A stretch of 58,673 nucleotides of DNA from Clostridia bacterium (lineage in GTDB: Bacteria > Bacillota > Clostridia > Oscillospirales > CAG-272), in NCBI GenBank assembly GCA_017399105.1, contig JAFQEJ010000018.1, positions 1 to 58,673 on the forward strand, written 5' to 3'. Below are positions 13,432 through 52,347 of this stretch, one piece after another. Made by a program: the position numbers and the translations under genes. The notes beneath the pieces were generated by a model that was given only the letters and a program-made list of their open reading frames with translations, made no database searches and was not told the DNA's origin. Positions within the stretch are counted from its first letter, which is position 1. Every line of letters begins with the position of its first letter.

Positions 13432-13531
13432 GTTAAACAGTAAACAACAGCACGGGACTGTTGAAATAAAATCAATTCTTGGAAAGGATGGGTGCATCAT
13501 GAATTCCCGCTGTCATGATGCAGAGATTCAC

Positions 13532-15025: not shown

Positions 15026-15026
15026 T

Positions 15027-17234: not shown

Positions 17235-17252
17235 ACTAAACAATCATTCAGA

Positions 17253-17290
17253 AAGGGCTTAAAGAAAACAAACTTTAAGCCCTTATTTAT
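17253..17290 (+). terminator. Hairpin between the two paralogs
   Basis: AAGGGCTTAAAG-aaaacaaa-CTTTAAGCCCTT followed by ATTTAT. Confidence 0.6.
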
Positions 17291-17307
17291 ACGAGGTGAT
17301 TTATTCA

Positions 17308-18966
17308 ATGAAATTCTTACGTCCCACATCGGATATTGTCTACCCCAAGAGCGATATCATTTCCTCTCTTACAAAACACGAGAGCATCAGCGTTTCCAAG
17401 TCGGATATTTACACCGGCGGCCCGCAATTTATCGCCAAGCTGTATACCGAGGCGCTCTCCCGCTGTCCTACCGGTGCAGAATTTGCTGATGCAACCGCTC
17501 ACATCAAGGAACAGGGCTGCACCAAGAAAATGCTGGCGGTGCTTGCCTGCGAGATCTTCAGCTCGGATGCGTATCAGAAGGCGGCACTGACCCGCGATGA
17601 AATATGCTTTACCCTCTACCGTGCGATTCTCTCCCGTGATCCAATGGGGGAAGAGCTTGCTTCCTTCAACGGTGATGCTGTGACTGCTGTAAAGGCACTG
17701 ATTGCGGGTGCTGAGTTTGATGCATTGATGGAGGGGATTATTAAAGGTCCCTACTTCTGGCATGGAACCAACTACGAGTGCTATACGGGATCGCAGGTGA
17801 TGCTTGCTTCCGAGGTACAGAAGCTGCTGAGACCGGATACGGTCACCGCACTTCCGCAGGGGACGCTTGTGATTGTTGATGAAACGATCAATATGCCCAT
17901 CGGTGCCAAGCTGATCACTGAGGGAGAGCCGACCCATTACGCCAAGATGGCGCGTTTTCTGCGTCAGCGTGATACCGAAAAATATTATGATCTTCTCAGA
18001 CTCAGCGACAGCTGCGATATCCGCTCAATTTTCGTGGACGGCGCGCTTTCGGAATATCATGACAAGCTGATTCCTCCGACTCCTGTGATGGTGCTGGGCA
18101 ATTCAACCTCGGTGACAGACTGCCGTGTGTCCGATTCGATCAGCAGCGTGAATATTTTCATCGGTGCACAGCATGATGTTTATATTGCCCGCAATTTGAT
18201 CACCGCTTATGCTTCGGATCATGATCGAACCTGGCAGGATGGCATCCATAATAAGGCTTACGACGCGCTGATCGAATATAATGAAGTTGTAGATTCGACC
18301 GATGCGCCGATTGTGACCTTCCGTTATTTGCTGAATACACCCGATTACGATCACAAGCGGGCGCAAAATTCGATCATCCGCTTCAATAAGATTTTCAATG
18401 CGGGTAATTCTGCCTACTGTGCGCATGATTTTGAGACAGTGCATTATCTGAAGGTAGGACAGTCTGCCAAGGACGATGCTAATATGACAGGGCTTGTCAG
18501 CTATCATAATGAAATATGGTCATCCTGGCGCGCGCATTTTCACATGATTGCAACCTTCTCTACCGTGCCGTGGCAGGGCTCGGATAATAACGATATGGCA
18601 CATGGAGGTTCCTTCTACAACAATTGCACACCAGAGGGATGCTTTGCCCTCTGTGCCTGCGGAATCAATGCAGATAAGGTCCAGAATGCGGCAATTCGCG
18701 GCAACCGCTTTACCCTATATCTTGGTGATTGGTGCCGTTCCGATCCGAGATTGGGCAAAAGAGCCTACAGCGTGCACGCTGATAACTGCAGCGGTGATTT
18801 TCAGCCGGGATATAGTGATATGGCGATGTATACAGAGAAGGAGACCTTTATTATTAATCTGATTGGCGGACTGCAGCTTGAAGCTGAGGACAGCGTTTTA
18901 CTTGAGAGATGGGAGCTTTGCGAGGGCAGAGTAACCATTCCGATCGAGCGTTTTATGTCAAGATAA
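17308..18966 (+). CDS. Signal-less paralog B' of lipoprotein B (DUF4214-like + beta-helix + Cys cluster)
   Basis: About 60% identity to residues ~185-738 of B over its full length. No hydrophobic N-terminus (MKFLRPTSDIVYPKSD...). GAGGTGA sits 8 nt before the ATG at 17308. Confidence 0.55.
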   Translation: MKFLRPTSDIVYPKSDIISSLTKHESISVSKSDIYTGGPQFIAKLYTEALSRCPTGAEFADATAHIKEQGCTKKMLAVLACEIFSSDAYQKAALTRDEICFTLYRAILSRDPMGEELASFNGDAVTAVKALIAGAEFDALMEGIIKGPYFWHGTNYECYTGSQVMLASEVQKLLRPDTVTALPQGTLVIVDETINMPIGAKLITEGEPTHYAKMARFLRQRDTEKYYDLLRLSDSCDIRSIFVDGALSEYHDKLIPPTPVMVLGNSTSVTDCRVSDSISSVNIFIGAQHDVYIARNLITAYASDHDRTWQDGIHNKAYDALIEYNEVVDSTDAPIVTFRYLLNTPDYDHKRAQNSIIRFNKIFNAGNSAYCAHDFETVHYLKVGQSAKDDANMTGLVSYHNEIWSSWRAHFHMIATFSTVPWQGSDNNDMAHGGSFYNNCTPEGCFALCACGINADKVQNAAIRGNRFTLYLGDWCRSDPRLGKRAYSVHADNCSGDFQPGYSDMAMYTEKETFIINLIGGLQLEAEDSVLLERWELCEGRVTIPIERFMSR

Positions 18967-19065
18967 GGAAAATCTGACAACGTTTTTGACCGATTGGAAT
19001 TGACAAAAAGATCAAACAGCGGTATAATAATGAAAATTGAGTTCATAGTAAGGAAGGATTTGCCT

Positions 19066-20694
19066 ATGAGAAGATTTTCTGTTATACTGCTGTTTTTCTG
19101 TCTTTTGTGGGGATTGATCTCCTGCGGCGAGTCATCGTCAGATGGCACGGAAAGCGAAATACCACCTGATCATGCACAGCCGGTCGTTGAAAAGTTCTAT
19201 CAGATTGTGCGCTCGGATGATTCGAGCAAGACGCTGACAAGTGCAGCGGTGGCATTGAAAAACGCGATTCGTGATAGGGCAGGCTATGATATTGTGCTGA
19301 CCACCGACTGGGACAAAAATCCGGTTGAGGAATACGAGATTCTGATCGGTGAGACCCTTCGAGCTGAGTCGGATGTTGGTGAGCTTGATGCTTCCACCTT
19401 TGTTGTGCGTGAAGTCGGAACAAAAATCGTTATCACCGGCGGCAGTGAAAATGCTGTTATCGCAGGTATCAATTACTTTATTGAGGAGTATGTGAATAAA
19501 ATGGAGAATACAGGAAAGTTTGCACCCCCCACGGGGATCGATGTGAGCGATTCAACGCTCAACCGTCTGCTTGCTCTGAAAACAGATGGATCCTCCAAGA
19601 AGAAGGCATACAGCGATTACATCAAAACATACACCGAGAAGCAGCTTCTCAGCTTCGATGATCTGGATACAAAGAGCCTTCGTACAGCAGATGGCGTGGA
19701 GATCGACTCCACTTATATGCGCGAAGGCAGTGGTGCCATGCGCTGGACTTTGGATAAGGATTACAATGATCTTGTACAGATGATGCAGGTTTCTCGCAAT
19801 GCCTTTGAATTTGCGGTAAAGGATAAGAGAACGACTACATTGAAATTCTGGCTCTTTATCAATGATACCGATCTGATATCCTGCGACCATGATTCTCAAT
19901 ACGGAATCCAGGAGAATCAGGCAACCTTCTTCATCCGTGTGACCGACAAAAACGGACGTACTTACTGCTGGAATCATACCATCACCGATAACGGCTGGCA
20001 CGAAATTGAGCTTTCCTTCAATGTACACAACGGTGTTGATGCCGATTTTGATTATGATCACATCACCGGCTTTTGGATCATGTTCTCGGGTAAAGCTGGG
20101 GCGGTTGTAGAACTGGACGACCTGCGTGCTGTGGAATATACAACCGATTACAAGCCCGAGGCAGTTCCCGCTGAATGGCGCGTGATTACAGATGCGGAAT
20201 ATGATGCGCTTGATGGTGCGATTGTCCAGGAATGGTACGGTACATATTACGATACTGAGGATAAGGTACAGGGCAAGTCTTCGCTTTGCTGTGAAGGTGA
20301 TGCTTCGGTTAATGATTTCCGTTTGATCATTGCAAACACCAGTATCCCCCTGGATTATGATCAGGATGTGCTGGTTTTCTGGATGAAACTGGAGAAGTTT
20401 GCTTCCTGCAATGGACTCTTCCTTGAGCTGAATCATGTACAGGATCAGCATGAGTATGAGAAGTCGGTTTCTCTGGATGAACTGAAGGCATACGGTCTTG
20501 ACAAGGAAAACGAATGGTGTCAGGTTGTCATTCCGCTCACCGATTTCAAACAGAATCTGAAGCCCGATGTATACGGCAAGGGCGAGGATATTGTGATGCA
20601 GAATTTTCGCTTTGTTATGAATCCTGTTTCCGGTATGGATTATAAAGTTCATATGGATCGCGCATATTTTACCACAAAGGATGCGCTGAATTGA
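19066..20694 (+). CDS. Lipoprotein C: shared N-terminal module + two putative beta-sandwich (CBM-like) domains
   Basis: MRRFSVILLFFCLLWGLISCG lipobox; AGGAAGGA sits 7 nt before the ATG at 19066. The N-module aligns with A and B. The C-terminal half is Trp/aromatic-rich and strand-like (KFWLFINDTD..., VLVFWMKLEKF...). Confidence 0.5.
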   Translation: MRRFSVILLFFCLLWGLISCGESSSDGTESEIPPDHAQPVVEKFYQIVRSDDSSKTLTSAAVALKNAIRDRAGYDIVLTTDWDKNPVEEYEILIGETLRAESDVGELDASTFVVREVGTKIVITGGSENAVIAGINYFIEEYVNKMENTGKFAPPTGIDVSDSTLNRLLALKTDGSSKKKAYSDYIKTYTEKQLLSFDDLDTKSLRTADGVEIDSTYMREGSGAMRWTLDKDYNDLVQMMQVSRNAFEFAVKDKRTTTLKFWLFINDTDLISCDHDSQYGIQENQATFFIRVTDKNGRTYCWNHTITDNGWHEIELSFNVHNGVDADFDYDHITGFWIMFSGKAGAVVELDDLRAVEYTTDYKPEAVPAEWRVITDAEYDALDGAIVQEWYGTYYDTEDKVQGKSSLCCEGDASVNDFRLIIANTSIPLDYDQDVLVFWMKLEKFASCNGLFLELNHVQDQHEYEKSVSLDELKAYGLDKENEWCQVVIPLTDFKQNLKPDVYGKGEDIVMQNFRFVMNPVSGMDYKVHMDRAYFTTKDALN

Positions 20695-34823: not shown

Positions 34824-36491
34824 TCAGTTATCGTAAACCAGAACCGCCGGAGGACAGCAGCAGTCAAGCTCGGTCAGATGCAGTCCGCGCTCATAGGCTT
34901 CACGTACGACAGCCATGACAATGCAATGGGATGAAATGCAGTAAAGTCGGAAGACAGGCTGATTTTTTAAATGCGCCGGTGGCTTCAGCGGAATACTGTC
35001 AAGGAAGCGGCTGTAGGCATAGCCCAGCACTTCGGTCAGGCTGGTGGTTGCCGCCGATATGAAGCTGTTGATTTCATTGTATTCAGTTCGCGAGAGAATG
35101 GCAATGTCAGGCTTTAATGTGCCATTATCACGCCTCAGCATGCCGAAGGTAATATATCGGTCAATTGTCTGCAGCATGCGCTCATCCAGTTCACCGTTCT
35201 CAGGTGTAACGCCGATGTGTGTGCACCAGAGCAGCTTGTGCATGTCTCTGTTGAGAAAATAGGAATCAAAGCCTGCGGCGGAAGCACGGTAGGGCGAATC
35301 ATAGAAGGGGGTATCAAATTCATAAAGATCGAGGCATTTTGTTCCTCTGTAATCAAGAAGCCGCGAACTGCGGTGACCGCCATGAATCAAATAGTTGCTG
35401 ATTTGATTATCCTTGGCTTCATCGTAAACGGCGGGATAATGGTATGCTACAGCCGACCAGCGGCCACCGTCCTTTCTTTGAGGATAGCTGTTGGGATCAT
35501 TGAAGGATTCCTGCAGCTTCGGGCAGCCGTAAAATTCAAAATCCTGCAGTGCCTTCAGTGTTGCATAACGCTCCAGCTTTATTTTTTGCAAAGGTGTCAG
35601 TGTTTGATAGGAATCCAATTTCCGTATATTGCAGAGAAGTGTGTCCATTGCTGCCCAGAAGGTGTCGAAATGCTCCTTGACAAAGCGCTTCTGCGGCTCA
35701 AAGCGACTGTACCTGTCCTCGGGATGATAAATGATAAAATCGGTATAGATACGACCGCTGTCCTGTCTCACCATTAGCTCGCCGTCAACGAGTCTATCAA
35801 TGACAGGCTCAAGATATACGGTGGGGATACCTAACACTTCTGCAATTTCGGTGGGGAGCAGAGGCTTATCGTAGGCGACAATCAGAATGTTCTGGGCAAT
35901 GAGATCGCCGTTGACAAGTGTGTTCGGTTCACCCTTCCGACCGTCAGAGCCTCCGAAGGTCATTGCCAGTTTGCCTGGGATATATTGCTTCTTATCCATA
36001 TGTTCCTGTCCTTTCGTCAGTCTGTTCCTGAGCTGCCCCCGTCCTGCAGACAGTCTGCTTTTAACCGTTCCCTCGGGAATGCGGAGTGTTTTTGCAATCT
36101 CGGCGACGCTCTCACCTGCGAAATAGTGACGCAGCAGTACCTCGCGGCTCAGCTTTGCCAGATAAAGCAGTTCACGGCGAAGTTCTGCAGCTTCGTCGGA
36201 TTCGCAGACTGTATCAAAAACCTGATCGTCCTCATAAACATCGCCAATGGCATCCATGTTCAGAATCGGCGGCTGTCGGTATAATCTGCGAAGCCGGTCA
36301 TTTGCCTTGTGCATCAGCGTATTTGCCAGCCATGTCCGCGGATACTCAATTTCGTCTCCATGTTTGAGACAGGCAAGTGCTGCCAGCATGGTATCCGAGA
36401 CCAGGTCTTCCGCATCCTGCCGATTCTTTGATTTGGTGAGGGCGAGGGCAAAGAGATCGTCAAAGTAGGTCAGCAGCTCGGTTTTGTTCAT
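34824..36491 (-). CDS. ECF-like sigma-70 family sigma factor fused to a ~380-aa C-terminal domain of unknown function (555 aa, no TM segment)
   Basis: N-terminal ~170 aa has sigma region 2 and region 4 features (LRHYFAGESVAEIAKTLRIPEGTVKSRLSAGR). The long hydrophilic C-terminal extension contains a second HTH-like stretch. GAGGT sits 7 nt before the ATG at 36491. Confidence 0.7.
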   Translation of the reverse strand: MNKTELLTYFDDLFALALTKSKNRQDAEDLVSDTMLAALACLKHGDEIEYPRTWLANTLMHKANDRLRRLYRQPPILNMDAIGDVYEDDQVFDTVCESDEAAELRRELLYLAKLSREVLLRHYFAGESVAEIAKTLRIPEGTVKSRLSAGRGQLRNRLTKGQEHMDKKQYIPGKLAMTFGGSDGRKGEPNTLVNGDLIAQNILIVAYDKPLLPTEIAEVLGIPTVYLEPVIDRLVDGELMVRQDSGRIYTDFIIYHPEDRYSRFEPQKRFVKEHFDTFWAAMDTLLCNIRKLDSYQTLTPLQKIKLERYATLKALQDFEFYGCPKLQESFNDPNSYPQRKDGGRWSAVAYHYPAVYDEAKDNQISNYLIHGGHRSSRLLDYRGTKCLDLYEFDTPFYDSPYRASAAGFDSYFLNRDMHKLLWCTHIGVTPENGELDERMLQTIDRYITFGMLRRDNGTLKPDIAILSRTEYNEINSFISAATTSLTEVLGYAYSRFLDSIPLKPPAHLKNQPVFRLYCISSHCIVMAVVREAYERGLHLTELDCCCPPAVLVYDN

Positions 36492-41799: not shown

Positions 41800-41860
41800 T
41801 TGACAAGTGTCTGCGATTGTGGTATAGTGAAGATACCACCGTAGACACTTGTCTTTGTTT
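41800..41860 (+). promoter_or_regulatory. Promoter TTGACA-17-TATAGT of the blaI/blaR1-like operon 1, bracketed by an 11-bp inverted repeat (GACAAGTGTCT ... AGACACTTGTC); candidate BlaI-type operators
   Basis: gtgTTGACAAGTGTCTgcgattgtggTATAGTgaagataccaccgtAGACACTTGTCttt. One half-site overlaps the -35 and one lies downstream of the -10. An inner TGGTA-9-TACCA dyad overlaps the -10. Confidence 0.45.
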
Positions 41861-41883: not shown

Positions 41884-42261
41884 ATGACCCACGACATTCC
41901 CCGCCTTCCCGATGCCGAGCTGGATATCATGCTTGTGCTCTGGAGTACCGATCACATGATGAAAGCAAGCGAAATCCTCGAAGCTCTCGAAGGGGAGCAT
42001 TCCTGGAAAAAGGGCACGCTTCATGTCCTTCTGGAGCGGCTTTTGGAGAGAGGTTTTATCGAAGCGAAGAGAGAGAGTAACTACAAGCTCTTTTCGCCGA
42101 AAATTACAGAAGAAGAGTATCGTACATCCGAGTCACGCACCTTCATGAAGAAGCTCTGCCGAGGATCGTGGAAGACGATGGTTGCTTCCTTCACTTCGGG
42201 CAACAAGCTGACCGAGGAAGACATCCGCGAAATTGAGGATATACTCAAAAACGCCAAATAA
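41884..42261 (+). CDS. BlaI/MecI/CopY-family transcriptional repressor (copy 1)
   Basis: Penicillinase-repressor winged-helix N-terminus (ELDIMLVLWSTDHMMKASEILEAL). AAAGGAAG sits 7 nt before the ATG at 41884. Confidence 0.8.
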   Translation: MTHDIPRLPDAELDIMLVLWSTDHMMKASEILEALEGEHSWKKGTLHVLLERLLERGFIEAKRESNYKLFSPKITEEEYRTSESRTFMKKLCRGSWKTMVASFTSGNKLTEEDIREIEDILKNAK

Positions 42262-42272
42262 GGAGGATCATA

Positions 42273-45200
42273 ATGGAATTTCTTGCTGAGAGTATGCTGA
42301 ATATCACTCTGTCCATGTCGGTGATTATCCTATTGATGCTGATCTTCTCTCGCATCGCCGCAAAAAAGCTCACTGCGCGCTGCCGTTATCTGCTGTGGTG
42401 CCTGGTGATTCTCCGCCTTGCCATTCCCGCTGTGGGGCTGCGTGCTCTGCCGCCGCTTTTTACGGTGACACTGCCCGAGACGGTGATTGTGGAGGAAGAT
42501 ATCGCCGAAACGCTGCCCGAGTTGAACGAGCCGCCCTACAGCGTGATGCCACAGCAGCCGTTCGAGGGCAGTGCGCAGGATATCATTGCTGCCCCGCCTT
42601 CAGAGGATATACCGAACATCCCCAATTATACACAGAATATCACGCCCGATACCACACAGGGGATGCCGGGGGAGATAATAACTCCGATTATCCCCGAAAC
42701 CTTACCGGTTACGATGCCTGCGCCCGAGGAGAGCAATATTACCCTCGATCTTACGGTTGTTCTTCGTATCGTCATGCACCTTTGGGCTGTGATTGCCCTC
42801 GGAAGCTTTGCCTTCCGTATGCTGTCCTATCTGCACTTTGTGCTTCGCATGAAAAAGGACAATACAGTCTGTACAGATGAGCGTATTCATGAAATATATG
42901 ACAGCCTCTGCACCAAAAATTCTATCCGACGCAGACCGAGGCTCTGTATGAATGACGGCGTGACTTCACCAATGGTGTATGGTTACTTTAAACCGATCAT
43001 CATTCTCCCTTCGGATATTAAGGATGAATTTGCTCTGCGCGGCATCCTTTTCCATGAGCTTGTGCACTATCGACGCGGTGACCTGTACATGAAGCTGATT
43101 GCACAACTTGCCCTGTCACTGCACTGGTTCAATCCGCTTGTATATATTGCATCCGACCGTCTTGCACAGACGGCAGAACTTGCCTGTGATGAGCGGGTGC
43201 TTGCAGCATGCAGTATGAGCGATCGCGTAGATTACGGTAATGTGATGCTCGATATCATCAAGCAAAGCAGCGAGGAGCGCATCACAAGCAGCTCGATGAG
43301 CACGCACTTCAATCCCCGTACCGACGCGGTGAAGGAGCGCTTCCGCAATATCCTCGATATGCGGCCGAAAAATTTTGCTCTCTGGCTGGTGGTGCTTCTG
43401 ATGATTGCCTGCATTGTTACGGGAACCCTGGTGGCATGCAGCTTTAGCGGCGATGCTGACGGTGAGCAGAACAGTGAAGGGAAGGATGCCGTTACCACCG
43501 AAGCCGATACCGAGTCTGAGGAAACCGAAAGCGCGGAGACGGTGACGAACATTCCAGAGACAGGGGATGACAGACTTCCTCCCGATGTCTTTCCTGTCAC
43601 CGGTATCGACAGTGCGGTGATTCTGACCGGATATTATAACCTCAGCGAGAAAGCATTGGCACAGCTTTCGGCGTCAAGTGAGCATGCGAATAAAGAACTT
43701 GAAAATATGATCCTGATCGGATTGATGGTCAGCGAGGATGACGAGGTTCTCGCGGTTTACAAAACGCTTGGAGGAGATTCCAACCGTTATGCAGCCTATA
43801 CTGGCGGTGAACAGTTCTATTTAAAGGATGCCTATCCCGGTATAAACACGATTGTTCCCACGCAGGAAATGGCGGTTGGATGGGGCATCAATGCTACCCT
43901 CATTTGTGATTCTCAGCAGATTCTGATGGATGAAGCGGGAGACGGAAATTTCTTCTTTGAACAGGGCTGGCTTTTCCAAAAGCGTCATTATCAAGGTACC
44001 ATTCACACCTTCCGTCTGCCCATCAGCGAAGCTTATGTCCCTGACCTCGAGATTCAACGCTCCGAGCGCGTCTTTACCCATAATTGGCAGGAAGCAATGA
44101 TGACGCTGATTCCGGGCGGTGATATCGGAGGCGACGAAAATTGTCTTTATGTGTTTATCACCTACGATATGGCTCAGACCTGGTATGTGACTGCGCTTCC
44201 TGCGCCCGGTGTCTGTGTCAGAGGCAGCGCGAATTATGACGAGTACGGCAATCTCCATGTCTATGCCATAGGCGAGGGAAATTCCGATTACAATCGCTAC
44301 TTCAGCTACAATGGCGGCTTCCGCTTTGTGATGGTGGACGATATGTACCTCGGAGAGGGCACCGCCGTGGAGGTAAAGACGCCGAACGAACACTATTCAG
44401 CATCGGTGAACGGCTTCGCTTATGCCACGCTCTATGATATGATGAAGCAGGGATATCCGTTCCCCGCGCATGGCGATGCCAGTGAGGAATATATCCTCGT
44501 CGGTCCGGGACCGGCGGGCGGTGAGAGTGTGATACTCAAGCCGGGTGATGCACTTTATGATGATGTGTCGGCACTTCTTTACCGCCGCTCCATGCGTATT
44601 TATATCAGCGATGAATGGCAGTATCCCATCGCGGTTGCCTCCGGCAATTCACCGACCATGGGGCAATTCGCGCTGCGCTGGAATCCCGGAAATGCTTCGG
44701 GAGCGGGCTGGAATACATACGATATTATGAGCGGTGACGGAGCAGGCTACAAGAAGATTACCTTCTGCGAGCAGGGGGCGATCATTACCTTTGATACCAA
44801 CCACCGCAGTGTGGAAGGTGGGACTGCCACAAGTCTGTACCGCATTCTCTGCGATCTTACCGAGCGTGGTGAAGGTGTGCGTTCCGACGAGCTTGAAGTC
44901 TACCGCGATGAGCTTCGCGCCCGTGTGATGCTGCTGGTGGACGGTGTTGAGCTGCCGATCCGACTGACCTTTGCAGCGGAAGATAAATCTGCGATTCTTG
45001 TTCAGACCGATACGCCCATCAAATATGACAACATTCTGTCGTATATGCAGATTATCATCGGCGATACATATTCCCGCTTTGACACAATCGATGAGCTGAT
45101 CGCGGCACAGAATGAGGAAACCTGGCAGGAGTTCTACGAGTACGCACTGATGGTGCCCTATGTCTGGCATATCGATTATCTCACTGCCATCAAATCGGGG

Positions 45201-45971
45201 GATACCGCAAGACTCGAGCAGATGAGCGGCGGTCTGACTGCAGGAATGTACGACAGCTACAAGTCACTGAAATTTGCCGAGGGGGACTACTTCGAGATCA
45301 TTCATCTGGGCGATCTGAACAAGCCCTTTTACTGGCATGTTACCATCACCGAAAGTGAAGTCCCCGGACTTCCGGCGGGCGATTATGTGTTCCGTCTTGA
45401 TGAGGGCATCAGAGGTGTCACTCTGAATCGGGAAAATGCACAGTCTGTCGAGATTCACAATTACGGTGTGAGAAGCGATCTGCTCACATGGCTCGGTACC
45501 TGCGGCATGTATGAAATCCCCGATTGGGGAGATTGGGACGCGGCGGTTACCGAGGGACGGCTGGATGAAAGCATTTATGCGGTTGCCTTCGACTATCTCT
45601 CCTGCCGCTACGGATCTATGACCGCAGAGCAGATCAATGACTACGGTTACCGTGCTTTCGGTATCGATGAGCTGTTCTCACATCTTGGGCTGGATGAGAA
45701 TTCCTACGAATATGTCAATGGCAAATACGGTGTGGCAGGGCATGGCGGCGAGATCTGGAGCTATGACATTGTGGACTGTAATTTTGTCGGCGAGTCGGCA
45801 GCGGTCACGGTGCAGTTCTGGGCAGATTGGTCGAAAACAATTCCGTCTCACAGGATCACCTACCGCTTCGGTATTGATGTTCCAGAGGACGGTGGACTTC
45901 CCGTCAACAGTATCGTCGGCATCACCTATGAGAACAGAGGCGCATACGAACCGGCACATACTGCAGTATAA
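42273..45971 (+). CDS. BlaR1/MecR1-like M56 zinc-metallopeptidase sensor with an ~830-aa extracytoplasmic C-terminal domain of unknown function (1232 aa)
   Basis: N-terminal transmembrane helices, the HExxH motif HELVHYRRGD, and the WFNPL/CDERVLA blocks typical of M56. A Pro-rich insertion sits between the first transmembrane helices. After the last TM, the ~830-aa C-terminus has no recognisable domain. Confidence 0.75.
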   Translation: MEFLAESMLNITLSMSVIILLMLIFSRIAAKKLTARCRYLLWCLVILRLAIPAVGLRALPPLFTVTLPETVIVEEDIAETLPELNEPPYSVMPQQPFEGSAQDIIAAPPSEDIPNIPNYTQNITPDTTQGMPGEIITPIIPETLPVTMPAPEESNITLDLTVVLRIVMHLWAVIALGSFAFRMLSYLHFVLRMKKDNTVCTDERIHEIYDSLCTKNSIRRRPRLCMNDGVTSPMVYGYFKPIIILPSDIKDEFALRGILFHELVHYRRGDLYMKLIAQLALSLHWFNPLVYIASDRLAQTAELACDERVLAACSMSDRVDYGNVMLDIIKQSSEERITSSSMSTHFNPRTDAVKERFRNILDMRPKNFALWLVVLLMIACIVTGTLVACSFSGDADGEQNSEGKDAVTTEADTESEETESAETVTNIPETGDDRLPPDVFPVTGIDSAVILTGYYNLSEKALAQLSASSEHANKELENMILIGLMVSEDDEVLAVYKTLGGDSNRYAAYTGGEQFYLKDAYPGINTIVPTQEMAVGWGINATLICDSQQILMDEAGDGNFFFEQGWLFQKRHYQGTIHTFRLPISEAYVPDLEIQRSERVFTHNWQEAMMTLIPGGDIGGDENCLYVFITYDMAQTWYVTALPAPGVCVRGSANYDEYGNLHVYAIGEGNSDYNRYFSYNGGFRFVMVDDMYLGEGTAVEVKTPNEHYSASVNGFAYATLYDMMKQGYPFPAHGDASEEYILVGPGPAGGESVILKPGDALYDDVSALLYRRSMRIYISDEWQYPIAVASGNSPTMGQFALRWNPGNASGAGWNTYDIMSGDGAGYKKITFCEQGAIITFDTNHRSVEGGTATSLYRILCDLTERGEGVRSDELEVYRDELRARVMLLVDGVELPIRLTFAAEDKSAILVQTDTPIKYDNILSYMQIIIGDTYSRFDTIDELIAAQNEETWQEFYEYALMVPYVWHIDYLTAIKSGDTARLEQMSGGLTAGMYDSYKSLKFAEGDYFEIIHLGDLNKPFYWHVTITESEVPGLPAGDYVFRLDEGIRGVTLNRENAQSVEIHNYGVRSDLLTWLGTCGMYEIPDWGDWDAAVTEGRLDESIYAVAFDYLSCRYGSMTAEQINDYGYRAFGIDELFSHLGLDENSYEYVNGKYGVAGHGGEIWSYDIVDCNFVGESAAVTVQFWADWSKTIPSHRITYRFGIDVPEDGGLPVNSIVGITYENRGAYEPAHTAV

Positions 45972-45978
45972 TATTAAA

Positions 45979-46024
45979 GGGACTGACATAAACTTCCGAA
46001 ACGTCAGTCCCTCGTATTATTTTG
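45979..46024. terminator. Bidirectional terminator between blaR1-like 1 and mntP
   Basis: GGGACTGAC-15nt-GTCAGTCCC with T-rich flanks. Confidence 0.7.
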
Positions 46025-46028
46025 GTTA

Positions 46029-46610
46029 TCAAATGAAGCTCTTTACGAAAATCTGCACCCCGATGATGATGAGTATCACACCGCCGAAGATGGAAGCCTT
46101 GCCTGTCAGTTTGGTACCGACTGTTTTTCCGATGACAACACCGGCAAGGCAGATGAAGAAGGTGAGCGCCGCAATGATACCGGCACAAACCAGAGCCATG
46201 GTTTTATTATAATCGGCAATGGTGAAGCCTACCGACAACGCATCGATGGAGGTTGCCACGCCCTGTACGAGAAGCGCGCCCAATGTAAGGCTTTGACGCT
46301 CGCCTGTTTCATCGCCTCCTTTGATGCCTTCAATGAGCATTTTTCCGCCGATATAAAGGAGCAGAATCAACGCAATCCAGGGAATGAAACGGTTGAAAGC
46401 ATTAAACTGATTGGAAATGGTGTGAACACAGATCCAGCCGATCATGGGCATCAGCGCCTGAAAGAAGGCGAAGACTCCGGCGATCTGACACATCCTGCCG
46501 CGCCTCATCTGCGGTTCGTTGAGTCCGTTTGCCAATGACACAGAAAAGGCATCCATGGCAAGTCCGATACCAAGCATGAAGGATACAATAAAGAAATCAA
46601 AATTCCACAT
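46029..46610 (-). CDS. mntP: Manganese efflux pump MntP (DUF204)
   Basis: About 193-aa 6-TM protein with the duplicated DAFSVS / DALSVG motif. The likely start is MWNF at 46610, with GGAG 8 nt upstream. Confidence 0.85.
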   Translation of the reverse strand: MWNFDFFIVSFMLGIGLAMDAFSVSLANGLNEPQMRRGRMCQIAGVFAFFQALMPMIGWICVHTISNQFNAFNRFIPWIALILLLYIGGKMLIEGIKGGDETGERQSLTLGALLVQGVATSIDALSVGFTIADYNKTMALVCAGIIAALTFFICLAGVVIGKTVGTKLTGKASIFGGVILIIIGVQIFVKSFI

Positions 46611-46630
46611 GATATACTCCAAAATGTAAT

Positions 46631-46800
46631 AAAAAATCTCCGTCTGAGCACACAGGCGCAGGTCGGAGACACAAATGGGCAGACTTCATGCGCGGCATGC
46701 ACATGAGTCTCGTAAATGAAAGCAAGCCAGGATCTTGTCCAGTACGTTGACTTACTGCGCACCGAAGAACGGTACGCCTACTACTCCCTCAATTTGACTG
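46631..46800 (-). ncRNA. Probable yybP-ykoY (Mn2+) riboswitch with a terminator expression platform in the mntP leader
   Basis: The minus-strand leader contains the hallmark GGGAGUAG, followed by the helix GCGUACC-guucuucg-GGUGCGC and then ...UUUACGAGACUC... The intrinsic terminator UCUCCG-N21-CGGAGAUUUUUUAUU (46631-46670) lies just before the mntP RBS. This family classically controls mntP. Confidence 0.6.
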
Positions 46801-46805
46801 CAGCT

Positions 46806-46834
46806 ATTATAACACAAACGGGGAGGCTTGTCAA
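46806..46834 (-). promoter_or_regulatory. Perfect consensus promoter TTGACA-17-TATAAT driving the mntP leader
   Basis: Minus-strand sequence ctaTTGACAagcctccccgtttgtgtTATAATagc. Confidence 0.6.
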
Positions 46835-46850
46835 TAGCGAAAGAAGATGA

Positions 46851-46890
46851 AAAAAGGCAGATCGAGGAGATATACTGCCTGCGAGCTGCC
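46851..46890 (-). terminator. Terminator after the serpin gene
   Basis: On the minus strand: GGCAG..AGGCAG-uauaucuccucgau-CUGCCUUUUUUC. Confidence 0.55.
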
Positions 46891-46898
46891 TTAATCAT

Positions 46899-48167
46899 TC
46901 AGTTGATCTGCGAAACAGCGCCCATGAAAATCGGTACGCCCAGCTCACAGTCGAAGATGATGTAAAGGTAGGGGCGGTCGAGTATGACCAACTTGGTTTC
47001 ATCTTCGCTTGGAACAGCGGATGTGGGGGCGGCGATGACAGCGGTAGCGGCTCCCGCTTCGGTTCCTTTGCCGTCTACCTTGATGTAGGTTTTATGGAGC
47101 ACACTGCTCACATAAAGGGGAGAGCCCGCATAGCTTCCCATGGCGCTGAGGTCACATTCCGCACCGAAGAGGTCGGTGATACCCGCCATCTTCAGTATAT
47201 CGTTCAGTGATACCGAATATTCCTGCTCAAATTTAGGCATGCCTGCCTCTACCTTTACCGAAATGGGATTTTTGAGCATCTCGGTCAGTTTTTCGTCGGT
47301 CAGCATGGCGGCATAATCGGCAAGGCTCATACCTTCCTCGGGAAGCAATGCTGCAAAGGCGTATTTTCGGTCTTTGTAATATTTAATGAAGCCAACAGCA
47401 TGCTCGTCCTCCAGATAGGCTCGCTCGGTAGAATACATCATTGAAGCCTCCTGCACCTCGCCTGATGCGGTGGTGAAGCTTCGGGGACGGATGCTGTACT
47501 CGTTGTAGGGCGATTGCCATTCTGCATCAAAGGAGAGGGCATTGATGAGACAAACTACCTCATCGCCGCTGAATCGGTCAATCATTTTAGCGATGCGATC
47601 CTTTGTATTTTCCTTTACCCATGCATTGATGTCGGCGACTGTAGATTGATCGAAGGGCGCTTTAAATAATCCCGCACCGTAGTAACTTTCCCCGACGGCA
47701 TCGAGGAAGGATTCTTTGATTTCAAGCTTGCCGTCATCCTTCATCCAGATGGAATTCGCTGTATGCAGAACCTCATCCTCGCCCTGCATGTAGTGTGATA
47801 TCAGATCATTCAGCTGGGCGGTGCTCATACCGAAAGCGGCTTCAAGCTGTGCGAGAGTGTCACCGGCTGCTCCGTTGGCGGTCATACCAAGGGCTGCAAG
47901 AATGGAGAGCGGAGAGATGCATACCGAATCCTCTTCGTCAAGTGCCTGTCTGAGCAGCGTAAGCGAAAAGCCAACCGCAGTTGCTTCGGGGAGCGATTGA
48001 TTTTTCGCGGAGGACTTTTTTTGCGAAAGCAGATTGACAGCTTTAATCGGCTCTGCGATATGATCGGGAAGATCGGTTTCTTCCAGCTCGGAACTGTTCA
48101 AATAACAGCCGGAGAGAGAGGCAGTGATCATTCCCACAAGTAATAGCATGGAAATCAGACGTTTCAT
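46899..48167 (-). CDS. Serpin-family serine protease inhibitor, lipoprotein
   Basis: Lipobox SLSGCYLN; a serpin-like reactive-centre-loop hinge GTEAGAATAVIAAPTS; the C-terminal block PFIFLIR-like (RPYLYIIFDCELGVPIFMG). GGAG sits 8 nt before the ATG. Confidence 0.8.
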   Translation of the reverse strand: MKRLISMLLLVGMITASLSGCYLNSSELEETDLPDHIAEPIKAVNLLSQKKSSAKNQSLPEATAVGFSLTLLRQALDEEDSVCISPLSILAALGMTANGAAGDTLAQLEAAFGMSTAQLNDLISHYMQGEDEVLHTANSIWMKDDGKLEIKESFLDAVGESYYGAGLFKAPFDQSTVADINAWVKENTKDRIAKMIDRFSGDEVVCLINALSFDAEWQSPYNEYSIRPRSFTTASGEVQEASMMYSTERAYLEDEHAVGFIKYYKDRKYAFAALLPEEGMSLADYAAMLTDEKLTEMLKNPISVKVEAGMPKFEQEYSVSLNDILKMAGITDLFGAECDLSAMGSYAGSPLYVSSVLHKTYIKVDGKGTEAGAATAVIAAPTSAVPSEDETKLVILDRPYLYIIFDCELGVPIFMGAVSQIN

Positions 48168-48204
48168 AACAAAGTCTCCTGTTCGTTTACCGATATGACG
48201 TTAA

Positions 48205-48250
48205 AAAGCAAAAAAAGTTTCGCTGTCTACGGAAAATTTCGCAGACAGCG
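48205..48250 (-). terminator. Terminator after blaR1-like 2
   Basis: On the minus strand: CGCUGUCUGCG-aaauuuuc-CGUAGACAGCG followed by AAACUUUUUUUGCUUUUU. Confidence 0.65.
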
Positions 48251-48256
48251 ATGTTT

Positions 48257-50563
48257 TTAATTAGCGGCGGGAACCTCCTGTACAGGTCTTGTGATGACCG
48301 CACCTCCTATTTCAGAGTTTGACTGCATGATGCAATCATCTGATATCATATAGGCGGAGTAGATTTTGCCAATACCTGTACGGATTTCTCCGGTATCGCG
48401 GATGTAGATGCTGCCCGAGGCAACGTATTCGCCATTTTTTACCGCAGTATAGGTGAGCATGCTGCCCGAAACCGAAGCGACCTCTCCATAATTGAACGGA
48501 TACCACTTTGCGGAGGTGTCATCTATGGTCATCTGAGCGACCTGATGCTTTGGTCCGATGGCATCCTGTCCCATATTGCCAAGGGTGCAGGAGACCGACA
48601 GCTCATCGTAATCAAAGTCGAATTTGAAGCGGAAGAAGGGCGATTTTGCACTGATGTTGGGGGCATATTCCCAATAAACCTTATCCACCGTCGCTTCGGG
48701 GATGAGAGAGTAGATATCCCAGATCATCTGCTTTTCATCCTGACCGTTGAAACGTACAATCCACATGCTGCCGTTGATCTCCCACAGACTGAAGTTGTCG
48801 TTCAGGCGCATCTCGAATTTTTTGCTGTAGAAATCGAGATTAAGATGATTTCCGAGACTGCCTGTAAGAAGCTGATCAAGCTCACTTTCGCTGTAGGGCC
48901 AGGGCGACCATACTCCGCTCATTTCACCGGCAGCAACAATTTCGCCGCTGCTGTGCATAATCTCAAATGTATCTGCCGAAAAATAGTAGAGCATTCCCGA
49001 ATCTCCGGTTGAGAGTGTGGAGCTGAGCGGTGTCATATAGATGCACTGATCAGAGATGTAGCCAACCGGTTCGTCACTTTGCAGATAAGCCTCCGAGCGT
49101 CCCTCAAGCTCGAACATCCAGCGGATGATATTTTCACGCTCGTTGTCAGAAGAATTGTAACCGTAAGCAAGATACAGCTTTCCGCCTTCTGCTTGGATGA
49201 GGTAATAGCAGACATCGTTATCCGGATTGATATCCTCCACATAGTTTGCCCAATTAACCTGCGAGCGCAGGGCTGCGGGATCGAAATTCTTATAATTATA
49301 TTCGTCGAGCATGAGAAACATGTCATCGAAATTTTCTTCGGTGAGCGTCATCTCGGCAAGCTCACCGCACTCGAGCCAATCACCGTAGACGCCGCCTTCC
49401 TGAAGATGACGCGTATAGAGCTTTCCGCCGTCAAGCATGAATTCGGGTGCATTTTCGGTGGTAACCGTGAAGGAATACATGGGCGCATCATAAAGAACGT
49501 CTCTAACATGGTAATATAGTCCGTCGCGGTTGAGTATAACAGAATCAGAGGTTTTATCCTTCTTTGGATTGGCCGCACAGGCGATGATTGCTGCAGCACA
49601 GAGCAGAATCGCAATCGCGGTTACCCATAATGTCGGCTTTTTCCAGCTCAGAATGTTTTTGATGCGTACCTTCACCGCACTCTCTCCGAAGGCAAGGGGA
49701 GCAGGGGCAGGGAAGCGCTTATTGGCTGCAAAGGAGAGAAGCGTGATACCGTATGCCTTGCGGATGCTTTCATCCTGTGCCAGAACACGCTCGTCACAGC
49801 TCATCTCCATATCTCTTGACATCAGTATGAAGGCAAGCCAGCAGAGGGGATTGAACCAGTGCAGAACGAGAATGAGGTAGGCAAGGGGCTTGATGATGTG
49901 GTCGCACCGTTTGATATGGATGCGCTCATGGGTGAGCACATAATGGCGGGCATCATCGTCAAGTCCATAGGGGAGATAGATGCGCGGTTTTATGATGCCG
50001 AGCACAAAGGGGGAGCGAACTTCTTCGGAGCAATAGATGCGATCTTCGATCTTCACTGCTTTTTGCAGCTTCACCAGAAGCAGAATGAGGCTGACGATCG
50101 AATAGATCACCAGTGCCGCCATACCGCATATCCAGAAGAAGGTGAGGATATACATCCAAATCTGCAGGGGATTGGCACTGTACATGGGAGTAGCTGCAGG
50201 GAGTGATCCGGAGATTGCAGAATTGAGGTAGGGAATCCCCACCGTTACCTCTGGTTCTGCCATGAGACCGATATTTTCTGGAATGTAGGTGAGCGTGCCC
50301 GGCGCAATTTCCTGTGCCGCTGACATGTCGAAGGGCTTCAGAGAAAAGAGACTGAACAACGATTCAAAGGAAACAGGACATACTAGACGGAAGGCTGCAG
50401 CACTCCAAAGCAGATATGACCAGCGTTTGGGGGCTTTCTTCAAAAGAAGACGGATGAGCATAACTGCGAGAATCACATAGCTTCCCGTGATGCTCATGTT
50501 TAGAATCTGTCGGAAGATCGGTTCGCTCTCTTCGACTAATATCAGGATCGGTTCAATCATCAT
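48257..50563 (-). CDS. BlaR1/MecR1-like M56 zinc-metallopeptidase sensor with a ~430-aa extracytoplasmic C-terminal domain (768 aa)
   Basis: HERIHIKRCDH (HExxH), and the HWFNPLCW and CDERVLA blocks. After the last TM (TLWVTAIAILLCAAAIIACAANP) a hydrophilic domain follows that is unrelated to that of copy 1. It overlaps the blaI-like gene by 11 nt. Confidence 0.75.
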   Translation of the reverse strand: MMIEPILILVEESEPIFRQILNMSITGSYVILAVMLIRLLLKKAPKRWSYLLWSAAAFRLVCPVSFESLFSLFSLKPFDMSAAQEIAPGTLTYIPENIGLMAEPEVTVGIPYLNSAISGSLPAATPMYSANPLQIWMYILTFFWICGMAALVIYSIVSLILLLVKLQKAVKIEDRIYCSEEVRSPFVLGIIKPRIYLPYGLDDDARHYVLTHERIHIKRCDHIIKPLAYLILVLHWFNPLCWLAFILMSRDMEMSCDERVLAQDESIRKAYGITLLSFAANKRFPAPAPLAFGESAVKVRIKNILSWKKPTLWVTAIAILLCAAAIIACAANPKKDKTSDSVILNRDGLYYHVRDVLYDAPMYSFTVTTENAPEFMLDGGKLYTRHLQEGGVYGDWLECGELAEMTLTEENFDDMFLMLDEYNYKNFDPAALRSQVNWANYVEDINPDNDVCYYLIQAEGGKLYLAYGYNSSDNERENIIRWMFELEGRSEAYLQSDEPVGYISDQCIYMTPLSSTLSTGDSGMLYYFSADTFEIMHSSGEIVAAGEMSGVWSPWPYSESELDQLLTGSLGNHLNLDFYSKKFEMRLNDNFSLWEINGSMWIVRFNGQDEKQMIWDIYSLIPEATVDKVYWEYAPNISAKSPFFRFKFDFDYDELSVSCTLGNMGQDAIGPKHQVAQMTIDDTSAKWYPFNYGEVASVSGSMLTYTAVKNGEYVASGSIYIRDTGEIRTGIGKIYSAYMISDDCIMQSNSEIGGAVITRPVQEVPAAN

Positions 50564-50923
50564 GCTCCTCCTTATGTTCGTTGATTAGTGCCATCAGCTC
50601 AGCAGCATCTTTGTCCGAGATGGTCTTTCCGCCGAGAAAAGATGCTAAAAATCCCGGCAGTGATCCGCCAAACGCCCTCTCGACGAAGCGCTCGCTCTCA
50701 TATGCCTGTACCTGTTCCTTGGGGATCAGAGAACGTACGATGGTATCTTCGTTGGCGGCGAATCCTTTTTCACACAGCTTTTTCAGTGTGGTGTAGGTAG
50801 TAGATTTCTGCCAGCCGAGCTGATTTTTGCATAACTCCACCAGATGACGGGAGGTAAGAGGTTCAGCCTCCCAAATCACGCACATAAATCGGTAATCGCT
50901 TTCGCAAAGCTTGAGATTTTTCA
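50553..50923 (-). CDS. BlaI/MecI/CopY-family transcriptional repressor (copy 2)
   Basis: The likely start is MKNLKLCESDYRFMCVIW at 50923, with AAGGAGG 6 nt upstream. Winged-helix penicillinase-repressor fold. Confidence 0.8.
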
Positions 50924-51037
50924 TTGGATGCCTCCTTGATTCAGAATGGTTGGTAACTACCGACCATCTATAGTCTATAACCACCGACCGAAATTGTCAA
51001 GGGATATTCCATACAGTTTACATAAAATTCAAAATGA

Positions 51038-51066
51038 TTGACGAAAGTGAAGATTTGTGGTAGAAT
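51038..51066 (+). promoter_or_regulatory. Promoter TTGACG-17-TAGAAT for the thrE-like gene
   Basis: gaTTGACGaaagtgaagatttgtggTAGAATgat. Confidence 0.45.
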
Positions 51067-51099
51067 GATACTATCAATTAACAAAATCAAAGGGGCTAT

Positions 51100-52347
51100 A
51101 TGAACATAGAAGAAATTGTATCCGCTGCTCTCGATATCGGCGAGGAAATGCTGGTTTCGGGTGCTGAGGTGAAGCGTGTGGAAGACTCGGTCAGCCGCAT
51201 CATCAAAGCATACATATACGGCGATGTGGATGTTTTCACCATCACCTCCAGCATCATTGTCACGGTGCGCTCGCCAAAGGACGGAATCCATACTCAATCA
51301 CGGCGAATTCTGAAGCATAAAACCGATCTCGATCGTCTCAGCAGACTCAACAACCTGTCGCGTACCGTTTGCCGTGAGCTTCCGCCGCTGGAAAGCATTG
51401 AGTTTGAGCTTGCTAAAATCAAACGAAACAGACAGTACAGTCGGTTTACAATGTTCTTTATTTATGCACTCGTCGCATCCTCCTTTACCCTCTTTTTCGG
51501 CGGTACCCTTATTGACGGTGGGGTGTCTGCCGCTGTGGCGCTTGTGCTCTGTGCAATGACCGATGTGATGGGACGCTTTGATCTGAACCGGATATTTGTC
51601 AATATGATCTGCTCCTTTGCAGCAGGCGTGCTTTCAATTTTGGCAGTGCATGCAGGCTTAGGGCATAATCTGGATATGATCATTATCGGCAATATCATGC
51701 TGATGATTCCCGGAATTGCATTGACAAATTCAATTCGCGATATGATCAGCGGCGATCTGATGACAGGCATTCTGCGTCTTGTTGAGGCATTATTGTTGGC
51801 TGTTTCGATTGCGCTGGGCTTCTCTCTGGCAATGATTCCACTCGATGCGCTGATTATTTCAGGACGCAATGCCGTGCAGACTAATCTGCTTCAGCTTCTT
51901 TGGGCACTGCTCGGCTCAGTGAGCTTTGCAATGCTTTTCAATGTGCGCGGACGTCATCTTTTGATTTCGTCATTGGGCGGGTTCTTCCTGTGGGCAGTTT
52001 ATCTTCTCTGCGGCAACTTCATTTCCAATGAATATGCCCTCTATTTTATCGCGGCGGCAGCGGCTACGGTATATGCAGAGGTCTTCGCCCGCGTCATGAA
52101 AACTCCCACCACGCTCTTTCTGGTTGTTGCGGTTATTCCTCTGGTTCCGGGCGGCAAGCTTTACTACACCATGGAGCATGCGGTAAATGGCGAGATGGAG
52201 CAATTCTTCTCGGCGGGAGCTGCTACCATGGGATTTACCGTTGCCATCGCGGCGGGGATATTATTTATCTCTTCGGTGATGTCGGTGGCTGCTTCACTGA
52301 ATAAAAAATATAAAATAACACATACTACGAAAAAAACAATGAGGTAA
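51100..52347 (+). CDS. Threonine/serine exporter family protein, fused ThrE (DUF1212 + DUF3815)
   Basis: 415 aa. The N-terminal ~250 aa are YjjP/DUF1212-like (MNIEEIVSAALDIGEEMLVSGAEVKRVEDSV...). C-terminal transmembrane helices are YjjB/DUF3815-like. Confidence 0.7.
   Translation: MNIEEIVSAALDIGEEMLVSGAEVKRVEDSVSRIIKAYIYGDVDVFTITSSIIVTVRSPKDGIHTQSRRILKHKTDLDRLSRLNNLSRTVCRELPPLESIEFELAKIKRNRQYSRFTMFFIYALVASSFTLFFGGTLIDGGVSAAVALVLCAMTDVMGRFDLNRIFVNMICSFAAGVLSILAVHAGLGHNLDMIIIGNIMLMIPGIALTNSIRDMISGDLMTGILRLVEALLLAVSIALGFSLAMIPLDALIISGRNAVQTNLLQLLWALLGSVSFAMLFNVRGRHLLISSLGGFFLWAVYLLCGNFISNEYALYFIAAAAATVYAEVFARVMKTPTTLFLVVAVIPLVPGGKLYYTMEHAVNGEMEQFFSAGAATMGFTVAIAAGILFISSVMSVAASLNKKYKITHTTKKTMR

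Follow-up and report, generated by a model that had tools for sequence, protein, structure and literature searches.

The 58,673-bp contig JAFQEJ010000018.1 of assembly GCA_017399105.1, hereafter the window in its entirety, derives from a metagenome-assembled genome (MAG) of an uncultured gut member of the Clostridia and very probably carries two paralogous, non-canonical regulated-proteolysis switches of the BlaI/BlaR1 family (BlaIR) which respond to a signal other than a beta-lactam. In the mechanism that we propose, the winged-helix repressor of each pair would bind as a dimer to repeats overlapping its own sigma-70 promoter, and its partner would be a four-helix membrane zinc protease of the M56 family whose large C-terminal domain faces outwards. 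If Staphylococcus aureus BlaR1 is taken as the model, a ligand or a perturbation at this ectodomain would shift the autoinhibited protease, which would then cut the repressor at a conserved Ser-Phe bond that joins its DNA-binding half to its dimerisation half, leading to derepression of the operon. Locally, pair 1 would seemingly control only itself, and the most plausible local output of pair 2 would be a downstream lipoprotein serpin, reached through terminator read-through.

Pair 1 is encoded on the plus strand and consists of blaI-1 (41884-42261), specifying a winged-helix repressor of 125 aa that belongs to the BlaI/MecI family (PF03965, E 1e-25), and blaR-1 (42273-45971), specifying a 1232-aa M56 zinc protease sensor (PF05569, E 2.7e-46). 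Pair 2 is located on the minus strand, where blaI-2 (50553-50924; 123 aa; PF03965, E 4e-18) overlaps by 11 nt with blaR-2 (48257-50563; 768 aa; PF05569, E 2e-54, profile positions 3-296). In both pairs the repressor gene precedes the sensor gene, the two being adjacent or overlapping, and the co-occurrence of PF05569 and PF03965 within five genes places both among the non-canonical BlaIR systems as defined previously (PMC13492132). Between the pairs lie mntP (46029-46622, minus strand), a member of a manganese efflux family (PF02659, E 6e-36), and the gene for a 422-aa serpin (46899-48167, minus strand; PF00079, E 1e-75). An earlier inspection of the letters alone, referred to here as the sequence-only reading, had recognised two BlaI/BlaR pairs at this locus. 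The six open reading frames (ORFs) and their positions were borne out, but the end of pair 2 had been set at 50923, whereas the ATG of blaI-2 is at 50924. The same reading had both pairs converge on the mntP-serpin island, which is correct only for pair 1, because mntP, the serpin gene and pair 2 all reside on the minus strand. No further M56 or BlaI paralogue was found on the 58,673-bp contig, and the locus is present in identical gene order in metagenome assemblies with the record-name prefix XIEF21-1. The NCBI entry for BlaR-1 (MBQ4574467.1) is named 'M56 family metallopeptidase', and that for BlaR-2 (MBQ4574470.1; 767 aa, with another start) is named 'hypothetical protein IJA85_04655', despite a PF05569 score of 185 bits.

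The core of the repressor-cleaving machinery looks intact in both pairs, because the features of the zinc site, the autocleavage loop and the repressor cut site are all kept. BlaR-1 and BlaR-2 score 158 and 185 bits, respectively, on PF05569, against a cutoff of 31. The membrane/M56 module of BlaR-1 (residues 1-392; 42273-43448, plus strand) comprises four hydrophobic helices and a Pro-rich outer loop of ~100 aa (residues 55-160), and that of BlaR-2 (49565-50563, minus strand) carries H212ERIH, E253xxxD257 and a Phe within 'PLAFGES'. The HExxH motif, the Asp that follows it and the ExxxD motif can be read in both sensors, the zinc-site residues of BlaR-1 being H261ELVH, D270 and E302xxxD306; the conserved protease blocks that the sequence-only reading had pointed out are indeed there in both (HELVH/HERIH, WFNP, and E-L-A-C-D / E-M-S-C-D). 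The catalytic and autocleavage residues of S. aureus BlaR1, including the P1' Phe284 and Arg294, have been defined (PMC9834060), and alignment of BlaR-1 with the sequence of the S. aureus protein from its cryo-EM structure (8EXP) reveals equivalents of H201/H205, D210, E242xxxD246, Phe284 ('STH/F') and Arg294. In BlaR-2, the loop Phe and Arg ('PLA/F...KVR') were read by eye from the pairwise alignment to BlaR-1, which makes for a weaker case than that of BlaR-1. On the substrate side, the N101-F102 cut site of MecI aligns with A-S-F of both repressors ('MVASFTSG' in BlaI-1 and 'FLASFLGG' in BlaI-2), and the P1' Phe is almost invariant across the family (PMC9834060). MecI and BlaI structures match BlaI-1 at E 4e-14, and MecI matches BlaI-2 at E 1e-6; between the two pairs, identity is 27% for the M56 modules and 24% for the repressors. 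Judging from these conserved residues, regulated proteolysis of the repressor would operate in both pairs. CopY was also considered as an identity for the repressors and rejected for both, because their TIGR02698 scores (70 and 40 bits) are below the cutoff of 122 and the C-terminal Cys cluster is absent.

According to hydropathy, the final hydrophobic helix spans residues 369-392 in BlaR-1 and 312-333 in BlaR-2, leaving extracytoplasmic C-terminal parts of ~840 and ~435 residues, close to the ~830 and ~430 aa estimated in the sequence-only reading. No Pfam domain, PF00905 included, matches either ectodomain at E<=10, and no PDB sequence matches either of them beyond the M56 part. The NCBIfam models for blaR1, BlaR1 and MecR1 (NF000326, NF033108 and NF033109) align only over profile positions <=330 and reach 84-123 bits where 400-1200 would be required (NF000326: 123 and 84 bits, cutoff 400). 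Furthermore, BLASTP between the two ectodomains detected no similarity, with a best E of 0.21. These results agree with the earlier contentions that the ectodomains resemble neither the penicillin-binding domain nor each other and that neither pair is a beta-lactam sensor of the BlaR1/MecR1 kind, since neither possesses a penicillin-binding domain. It is extremely unlikely that the two proteins sense beta-lactams or peptidoglycan fragments in the ordinary way, through penicillin-binding or PASTA-like domains that have diverged strongly. The top NCBIfam models are blaR1_generic, BlaR1 and MecR1, as this alternative would have it, but they cover the M56 part only; the confident structural model of the BlaR-1 C-terminal domain (CTD) described below resembles NTF2/cystatin-like folds, not a transpeptidase fold, which largely refutes the idea for the CTD; and the Pfam labels of genes within 10 kb on either side include no beta-lactamase or penicillin-binding protein (PBP) gene.

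The ectodomain of BlaR-1 is composite. Its proximal portion (43449-45086, plus strand) consists of an acidic low-complexity linker (residues 393-450) and an orphan region of ~490 aa (residues 451-938), and is followed by the CTD (residues 939-1232 and the stop codon; 45087-45971, plus strand), a representative of an unnamed family of ~290 aa with GHGG and VTVQF[YW]ADxSKTVKSH motifs. A word-indexed search of 5.8 billion proteins retrieved only two relatives, at 98% and 78%. When 1.84 billion representatives were searched exhaustively with HMMER, 44 proteins matched at E<=1e-3, including 17 at E<=1e-10, and all 44 align solely to the last ~290 residues of BlaR-1. For the middle region, nothing beyond its own cluster was recovered among these representatives; it is 74% identical to that of P0002. 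The CTD relatives are mostly proteins of 310-370 aa in which a signal peptide and a lipobox Cys are followed by a low-complexity linker. Eight of the relatives are M56 proteins, seven of which have a BlaR-1-like module (E 1e-60 to 1e-70; 654-1216 aa), and in the eighth, P0039, a BlaR-2-like M56 module is joined to the CTD. The seven proteins with the BlaR-1-like module (P0015, P0024, P0028, P0030, P0031, P0032 and P0042) come from uncultured Clostridia, and P0024 (654 aa) represents the minimal combination of M56 and CTD, with no middle region. The occurrence of the CTD on both types of M56 module indicates domain shuffling among these sensors. Because the CTD recurs on M56 sensors, BlaR-1 belongs to a recurrent architecture of M56, variable middle and CTD. 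The middle regions of the other M56-CTD sensors are partly related to one another, and the ~490-aa middle region in the window is unrelated to them; profile comparison, in turn, related the CTD family to neither the BlaR-2 ectodomain nor the BlaR-1 middle region.

The AlphaFold2 model of the CTD, built from a 30-sequence alignment, is of high quality, with a predicted local distance difference test (pLDDT) score of 88 and a predicted template modelling score (pTM) of 0.87. It contains two halves, each made of helices and a curved sheet in an alpha+beta arrangement that looks NTF2/cystatin-like. Foldseek ranks a tandem NTF2-like protein first (E 2.4e-4), with a template modelling (TM) score of just 0.17, and the NTF2/cystatin-like assignment is therefore tentative and says little about a ligand. 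A search of GTDB contigs with an 8-sequence alignment located the CTD in 22 genomes, all of them MAGs of uncultured Clostridia, Oscillospiraceae or Eubacteriales, mostly from the animal gut. At these 22 loci, neither adjoining M56 or BlaI genes nor a recurrent partner gene was found. In two of the 22 loci (L017, 3120-6747; L010, 1794-6174) a free CTD lipoprotein is encoded just downstream of a sigma factor of the extracytoplasmic function (ECF) type, and in L017 the two are separated by the genes of a putative anti-sigma factor and of a membrane protein. There are hints here that the CTD also serves other signalling systems.

The BlaR-2 ectodomain (residues 334-768; 48257-49564, minus strand) is an orphan of ~435 aa, with a single relative, P0003 at 79% identity, among the 5.8 billion proteins. 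AlphaFold2 modelling with this only homologue gave a pLDDT of 32, that is, an unusable model.

To what extent the orphan parts are genuine protein could be assessed against GCA_053312775.1 (L001), the sole moderately diverged relative, using the ratio of nonsynonymous to synonymous substitution rates (dN/dS) at a dS of ~0.8-1.2. The ratio is 0.17 for the BlaR-1 middle region, 0.09 for the BlaR-1 CTD and 0.13 for the BlaR-2 ectodomain, and the ectodomain parts are under purifying selection (dN/dS 0.09-0.17). Because these values are comparable to those of the M56 cores (0.08-0.14), the orphan parts qualify as functional protein domains; the serpin stands at 0.14. The only fast-evolving region is the Pro-rich outer loop of BlaR-1 (window positions 42435-42752), with a ratio of 0.54 versus 0.14 for the core. 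EL1, an extracellular loop of S. aureus BlaR1, is docked into the sensor domain of that protein.

Each pair is preceded by a promoter which operator-like repeats overlap. The pair-1 element (41800-41854, plus strand) contains TTGACA-17-TATAGT, which scores 11/12 in the promoter scan, and two AGACAnnTGTCT-type boxes (41801-41812 and 41843-41854), which serve as the arms of an inverted repeat of 19 nt (41802-41820 / 41835-41853) enclosing the promoter. The arms hold TGACAAGTGTCT and AGACACTTGTCT, which we take to resemble the ACAnnTGT core of BlaI, MecI and CopY boxes. The pair-1 promoter/operator region is identical in L029. Upstream of pair 2 (50946-51000, minus strand), TTGACA-17-TAGACT is accompanied by two GGTCGGTnGTTA repeats (50978-50989 and 50954-50965) which are 24 nt apart and have TATAGACTATAGAT between them, the second being part of a 22-bp palindrome, ATGGTnGGTnnnnACCnACCAT (50946-50967). 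This promoter stretch of ~60 nt is almost invariant in L001, though dS is ~0.9. The dyad and direct repeats overlapping the two promoters are putative BlaI operators. Within the 58.7-kb contig, the operator-like motifs are confined to the two own promoters, apart from 9-mers in a hairpin behind blaR-2 considered below, in line with the earlier impression that no regulon is visible locally. From the intergenic stretch 50925-51099, blaI-2 and the gene of a membrane protein of the ThrE family (51100-52347) are read divergently, each from its own promoter, and an AP_endonuc_2/xylose-isomerase-like gene comes next after the latter. Conservation in the relative extends to the promoter on the ThrE side (TTGACG-17-TAGAAT), but ~50 nt separate it from the nearest pair-2 repeat.

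The apparent self-containment of pair 1 raises the question of whether the ectodomains sense anything. They could instead be functional or structural modules of the cell surface, engaged in binding or acting as decoys, in which case an autoregulated envelope-stress circuit would have the ectodomain proteins themselves as its output. The pair-1 operon, which comprises blaI-1 and blaR-1 alone and whose boxes occur nowhere else on the contig, speaks for this possibility, as do the occurrence of the CTD in free lipoproteins, whose 22 loci share no conserved signalling partner, and the precedent of Clostridioides difficile CenIR, likewise a system with no known inducer. On the other hand, conservation of the catalytic and autocleavage features of the M56 module speaks for signalling, and the contig represents 58.7 kb of the genome, such that more distant targets would be out of view. 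On balance, we regard the surface-module interpretation as distinctly improbable and favour signal-responsive proteolytic switches.

The serpin is the one local gene which could plausibly be an output of such a switch. The protein matches PF00079 with 255 bits over profile positions 5-369 and has a signal peptide, a lipobox (LSGC) and an Ala-rich hinge of the inhibitory type (GTEAGAATAV), the latter two read from the sequence. The sequence-only reading had called it a lipoprotein serpin, with which the profile match, the signal peptide and the lipobox fully accord, and it is predicted to be an inhibitory-type lipoprotein. In its reactive-centre loop (46950-47010), the hinge and the proximal loop are identical to those of L001, and the residues around the predicted P1/P1' differ, with V-P-S-E-D in the window and V-L-I-E-E in L001, which suggests that the target protease may have shifted. 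The gene is co-directional with pair 2 and starts 89 nt after blaR-2; the promoter scan detected no sigma-70-like promoter in between. The order of pair 2 followed by the serpin is kept in GCA_053312775.1, at a dS of ~0.95, where mntP and pair 1 are not found alongside. Because the serpin gene is co-directional, promoterless in the scan and still downstream of pair 2 in the relative, it can be considered the best local candidate for an output of pair 2, through read-through of a terminator.

That terminator is a hairpin positioned directly after the blaR-2 stop codon (48210-48251, minus strand), with a 12-bp stem and a T7 run, and classified as an intrinsic terminator by the scan. Its repeat (48220-48251) shares the 9-mers TGTCTGCGA and CCGTAGACA with the pair-1 operator (41808-41847). 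It is conceivable, albeit very improbable, that BlaI-1 also binds this repeat, in which case pair 1, and not pair 2, would gate the serpin through a roadblock or operator. Both 9-mers are shared, and their combination is found at only two sites in the 58.7-kb contig, where 0.05 would be expected; conservation of the hairpin in L001 amounts to 95%, loop included, at a dS of ~0.95; and a similar sequence, GTCTAT-N5-ATAGAC, is bound by a BlaI of Clostridium thermocellum (PMC8457756). However, the spacing of the 9-mers differs between the two sites (6 nt versus 22 nt), the repeat is not a AGACAnnTGTCT box, and the element has the form of a textbook hairpin with a T-run, in which the one arm substitution in L001 keeps a U.G wobble pair, as expected for RNA. 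We read the 48210-48251 element as a terminator, and the shared 9-mers are left unexplained.

Several observations weigh against our overall interpretation. The operators were assigned by symmetry and position alone, and each promoter allows two different readings. A role other than sensing, for example, as a surface scaffold, is conceivable for the BlaR-2 ectodomain and for the middle region of BlaR-1. As to the serpin, a strong hairpin with its T7 run separates the gene from blaR-2, an EamA-type gene is inserted between the two in GCA_053312775.1, the synteny evidence comes from two closely related species, and five more distant metagenome serpins (30-37% identity) have no M56 or BlaI neighbour. 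Given the intervening hairpin, the two related genomes and the distant serpins devoid of M56/BlaI neighbours, the case for the serpin as an output of pair 2 is weak.

The same body of evidence bears on a more specific proposal, namely, that pair 2 is a protease-responsive switch, with exogenous serine proteases of host or microbial origin acting on the BlaR-2 ectodomain to activate the M56 protease, BlaI-2 being cut, the blaI-2/blaR-2/serpin transcript rising and the cell surface becoming coated with an inhibitor. The close co-directional arrangement with no promoter of its own for the serpin, the gene order shared with the relative in a different neighbourhood, and the combination of an inhibitory-type hinge with a lipobox would all fit this scenario. 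It is countered by the terminator-like hairpin, by the EamA-type insertion and by the distant serpins outside any M56/BlaI context; besides, we found no literature linking serpins with BlaIR systems, and the synteny extends to two related genomes. Consequently, we consider the protease-responsive switch unlikely. We hold it to be quite unlikely, too, that pair 2 and the serpin form a single unit sensing extracellular proteases or damage while the BlaR-1 CTD is a new sensor module shared with lipoproteins. If the former were true, pair 2 and the serpin would constitute a BlaIR pairing of input and output that has not been described before, and gut bacteria would have a new way of controlling a serpin.

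The remaining gene of the island, mntP, had been described in the sequence-only reading as riboswitch-controlled. Gene callers place its start at the ATG at 46610, and the protein is 193 aa as called in L025. The promoter and leader (46623-46834, minus strand) comprise TTGACA-17-TATAAT with a TG, which attains the full score of 12/12 in the scan, and a structured leader of ~175 nt that ends in a terminator hairpin (46631-46670), with a fold z-score of -2.2. The leader holds L1-like and 3'-strand-like motifs, GGGAGUAG and UUUACGAGAC, reminiscent of the loop strands of yybP-ykoY elements. In the 301 nt at 46600-46900, Rfam returned no match to yybP-ykoY (RF00080), whose model is a four-way junction with conserved L1 and L3 loops, at the gathering score, nor at E<=10 or any other threshold tried, and neither a P4 hairpin nor a UUGACA element was visible on manual reading. 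Because Rfam found no yybP-ykoY element, riboswitch control is unconfirmed; the sequence may represent a divergent or reduced Mn2+ leader. An inverted repeat, GGGACTGAC...GTCAGTCCC (45979-46011), read from the sequence between the convergent blaR-1 and mntP and unscored by the terminator scan, is possibly a bidirectional terminator.

Elsewhere in the window, none of four large ORFs in a row (13184-20694, plus strand; 613, 738, 556 and 566 aa) matches Pfam at E<=1e-5. A 555-aa protein (34824-36491, minus strand) has regions 2 and 4 of an ECF-type sigma-70 domain at its N-terminus, fused to a C-terminal extension of ~390 aa that has neither a Pfam match nor an obvious membrane helix.

With respect to the family as a whole, the pairs described here fall into a class that has already been recognised. 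In a survey of ~15,000 M56 proteins (PMC13492132, J Bacteriol, July 2026), ~6% have a transpeptidase domain and ~94% do not; the commonest of 254 architectures is an M56 domain followed by an unannotated C-terminal region; and BlaI is encoded within five genes of 96% of the M56 proteins. Because non-canonical BlaIR systems make up the majority of the family (PMC13492132), the window pairs are new members of a described class. By the same token, the giant, unrelated ectodomains emphasised in the sequence-only reading are indeed large and mutually unrelated but less unusual than implied. Particular to this locus are how large and how conserved the ectodomains are, the CTD family with its modular M56-X-CTD architecture, and the possible serpin output. 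Almost no BlaIR switch lacking a penicillin-binding domain has a known signal or output. The locus adds two well-preserved examples with unusually large ectodomains under selection, defines a recurrent extracellular domain of ~290 aa common to M56 sensors and lipoproteins, and offers, in the surface serpin, one concrete candidate output. Its value is that of a lead towards the signals sensed by the non-canonical BlaIR systems of gut anaerobes, and the understanding of the family is unchanged by it.

The closest mechanistic parallels are BlaR1-BlaI of S. aureus and Bacillus licheniformis and MecR1-MecI. Common to these systems and the window pairs are the M56 gluzincin signature (HExxH...ExxxD), an autocleavage loop with a P1' Phe, an adjacent winged-helix repressor with an x-Phe cut site, and an autoregulated operon with dyad operators, both the autoregulation and the operators being putative in the window. 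By contrast, the window pairs lack the C-terminal PF00905 domain and the divergent gene for a beta-lactamase or PBP2a, have Ser instead of Asn at P1, follow the order of repressor gene first and sensor gene second, and bear ectodomains of 435 and 840 aa with an unknown or NTF2-like fold. An atypical BlaIR system has also been described in Pseudomonas aeruginosa (2026 preprint). CenIR of C. difficile, for which no inducer was found, and other non-canonical BlaIR systems (PMC13492132) resemble the window pairs in having an M56 protease without a transpeptidase, a C-terminus without a known domain, a BlaI gene upstream and an unknown signal. However, the C-terminus of CenR is short and predicted to be disordered, whereas the window ectodomains are very large and under purifying selection, with a confidently folded CTD. 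The BlaI paralogues BlaI_0696 and BlaI_1845 of C. thermocellum are autoregulated and have tiny regulons of 1-3 operons; the half-sites they recognise, determined by DNA affinity purification sequencing (DAP-seq) and electrophoretic mobility shift assay (EMSA), are of the GTCTAT-N5-ATAGAC and GACTAT types, arranged in arrays for four protomers (PMC8457756). Similar hexamers occur in both window promoters (GTCTGC/GTAGAC and TATAGAC/TATAGAT), yet the window repeats are unlike these arrays in sequence and spacing. Finally, the RsgI-type anti-sigma sensors of C. thermocellum, such as RsgI9 with its S1C-NTF2 bi-domain (7sjy), a weak Foldseek match to the CTD with a probability of 0.08, are likewise transmembrane regulators with swappable extracellular modules, but they follow the logic of an anti-sigma factor, as opposed to that of a protease and its repressor in the window pairs.

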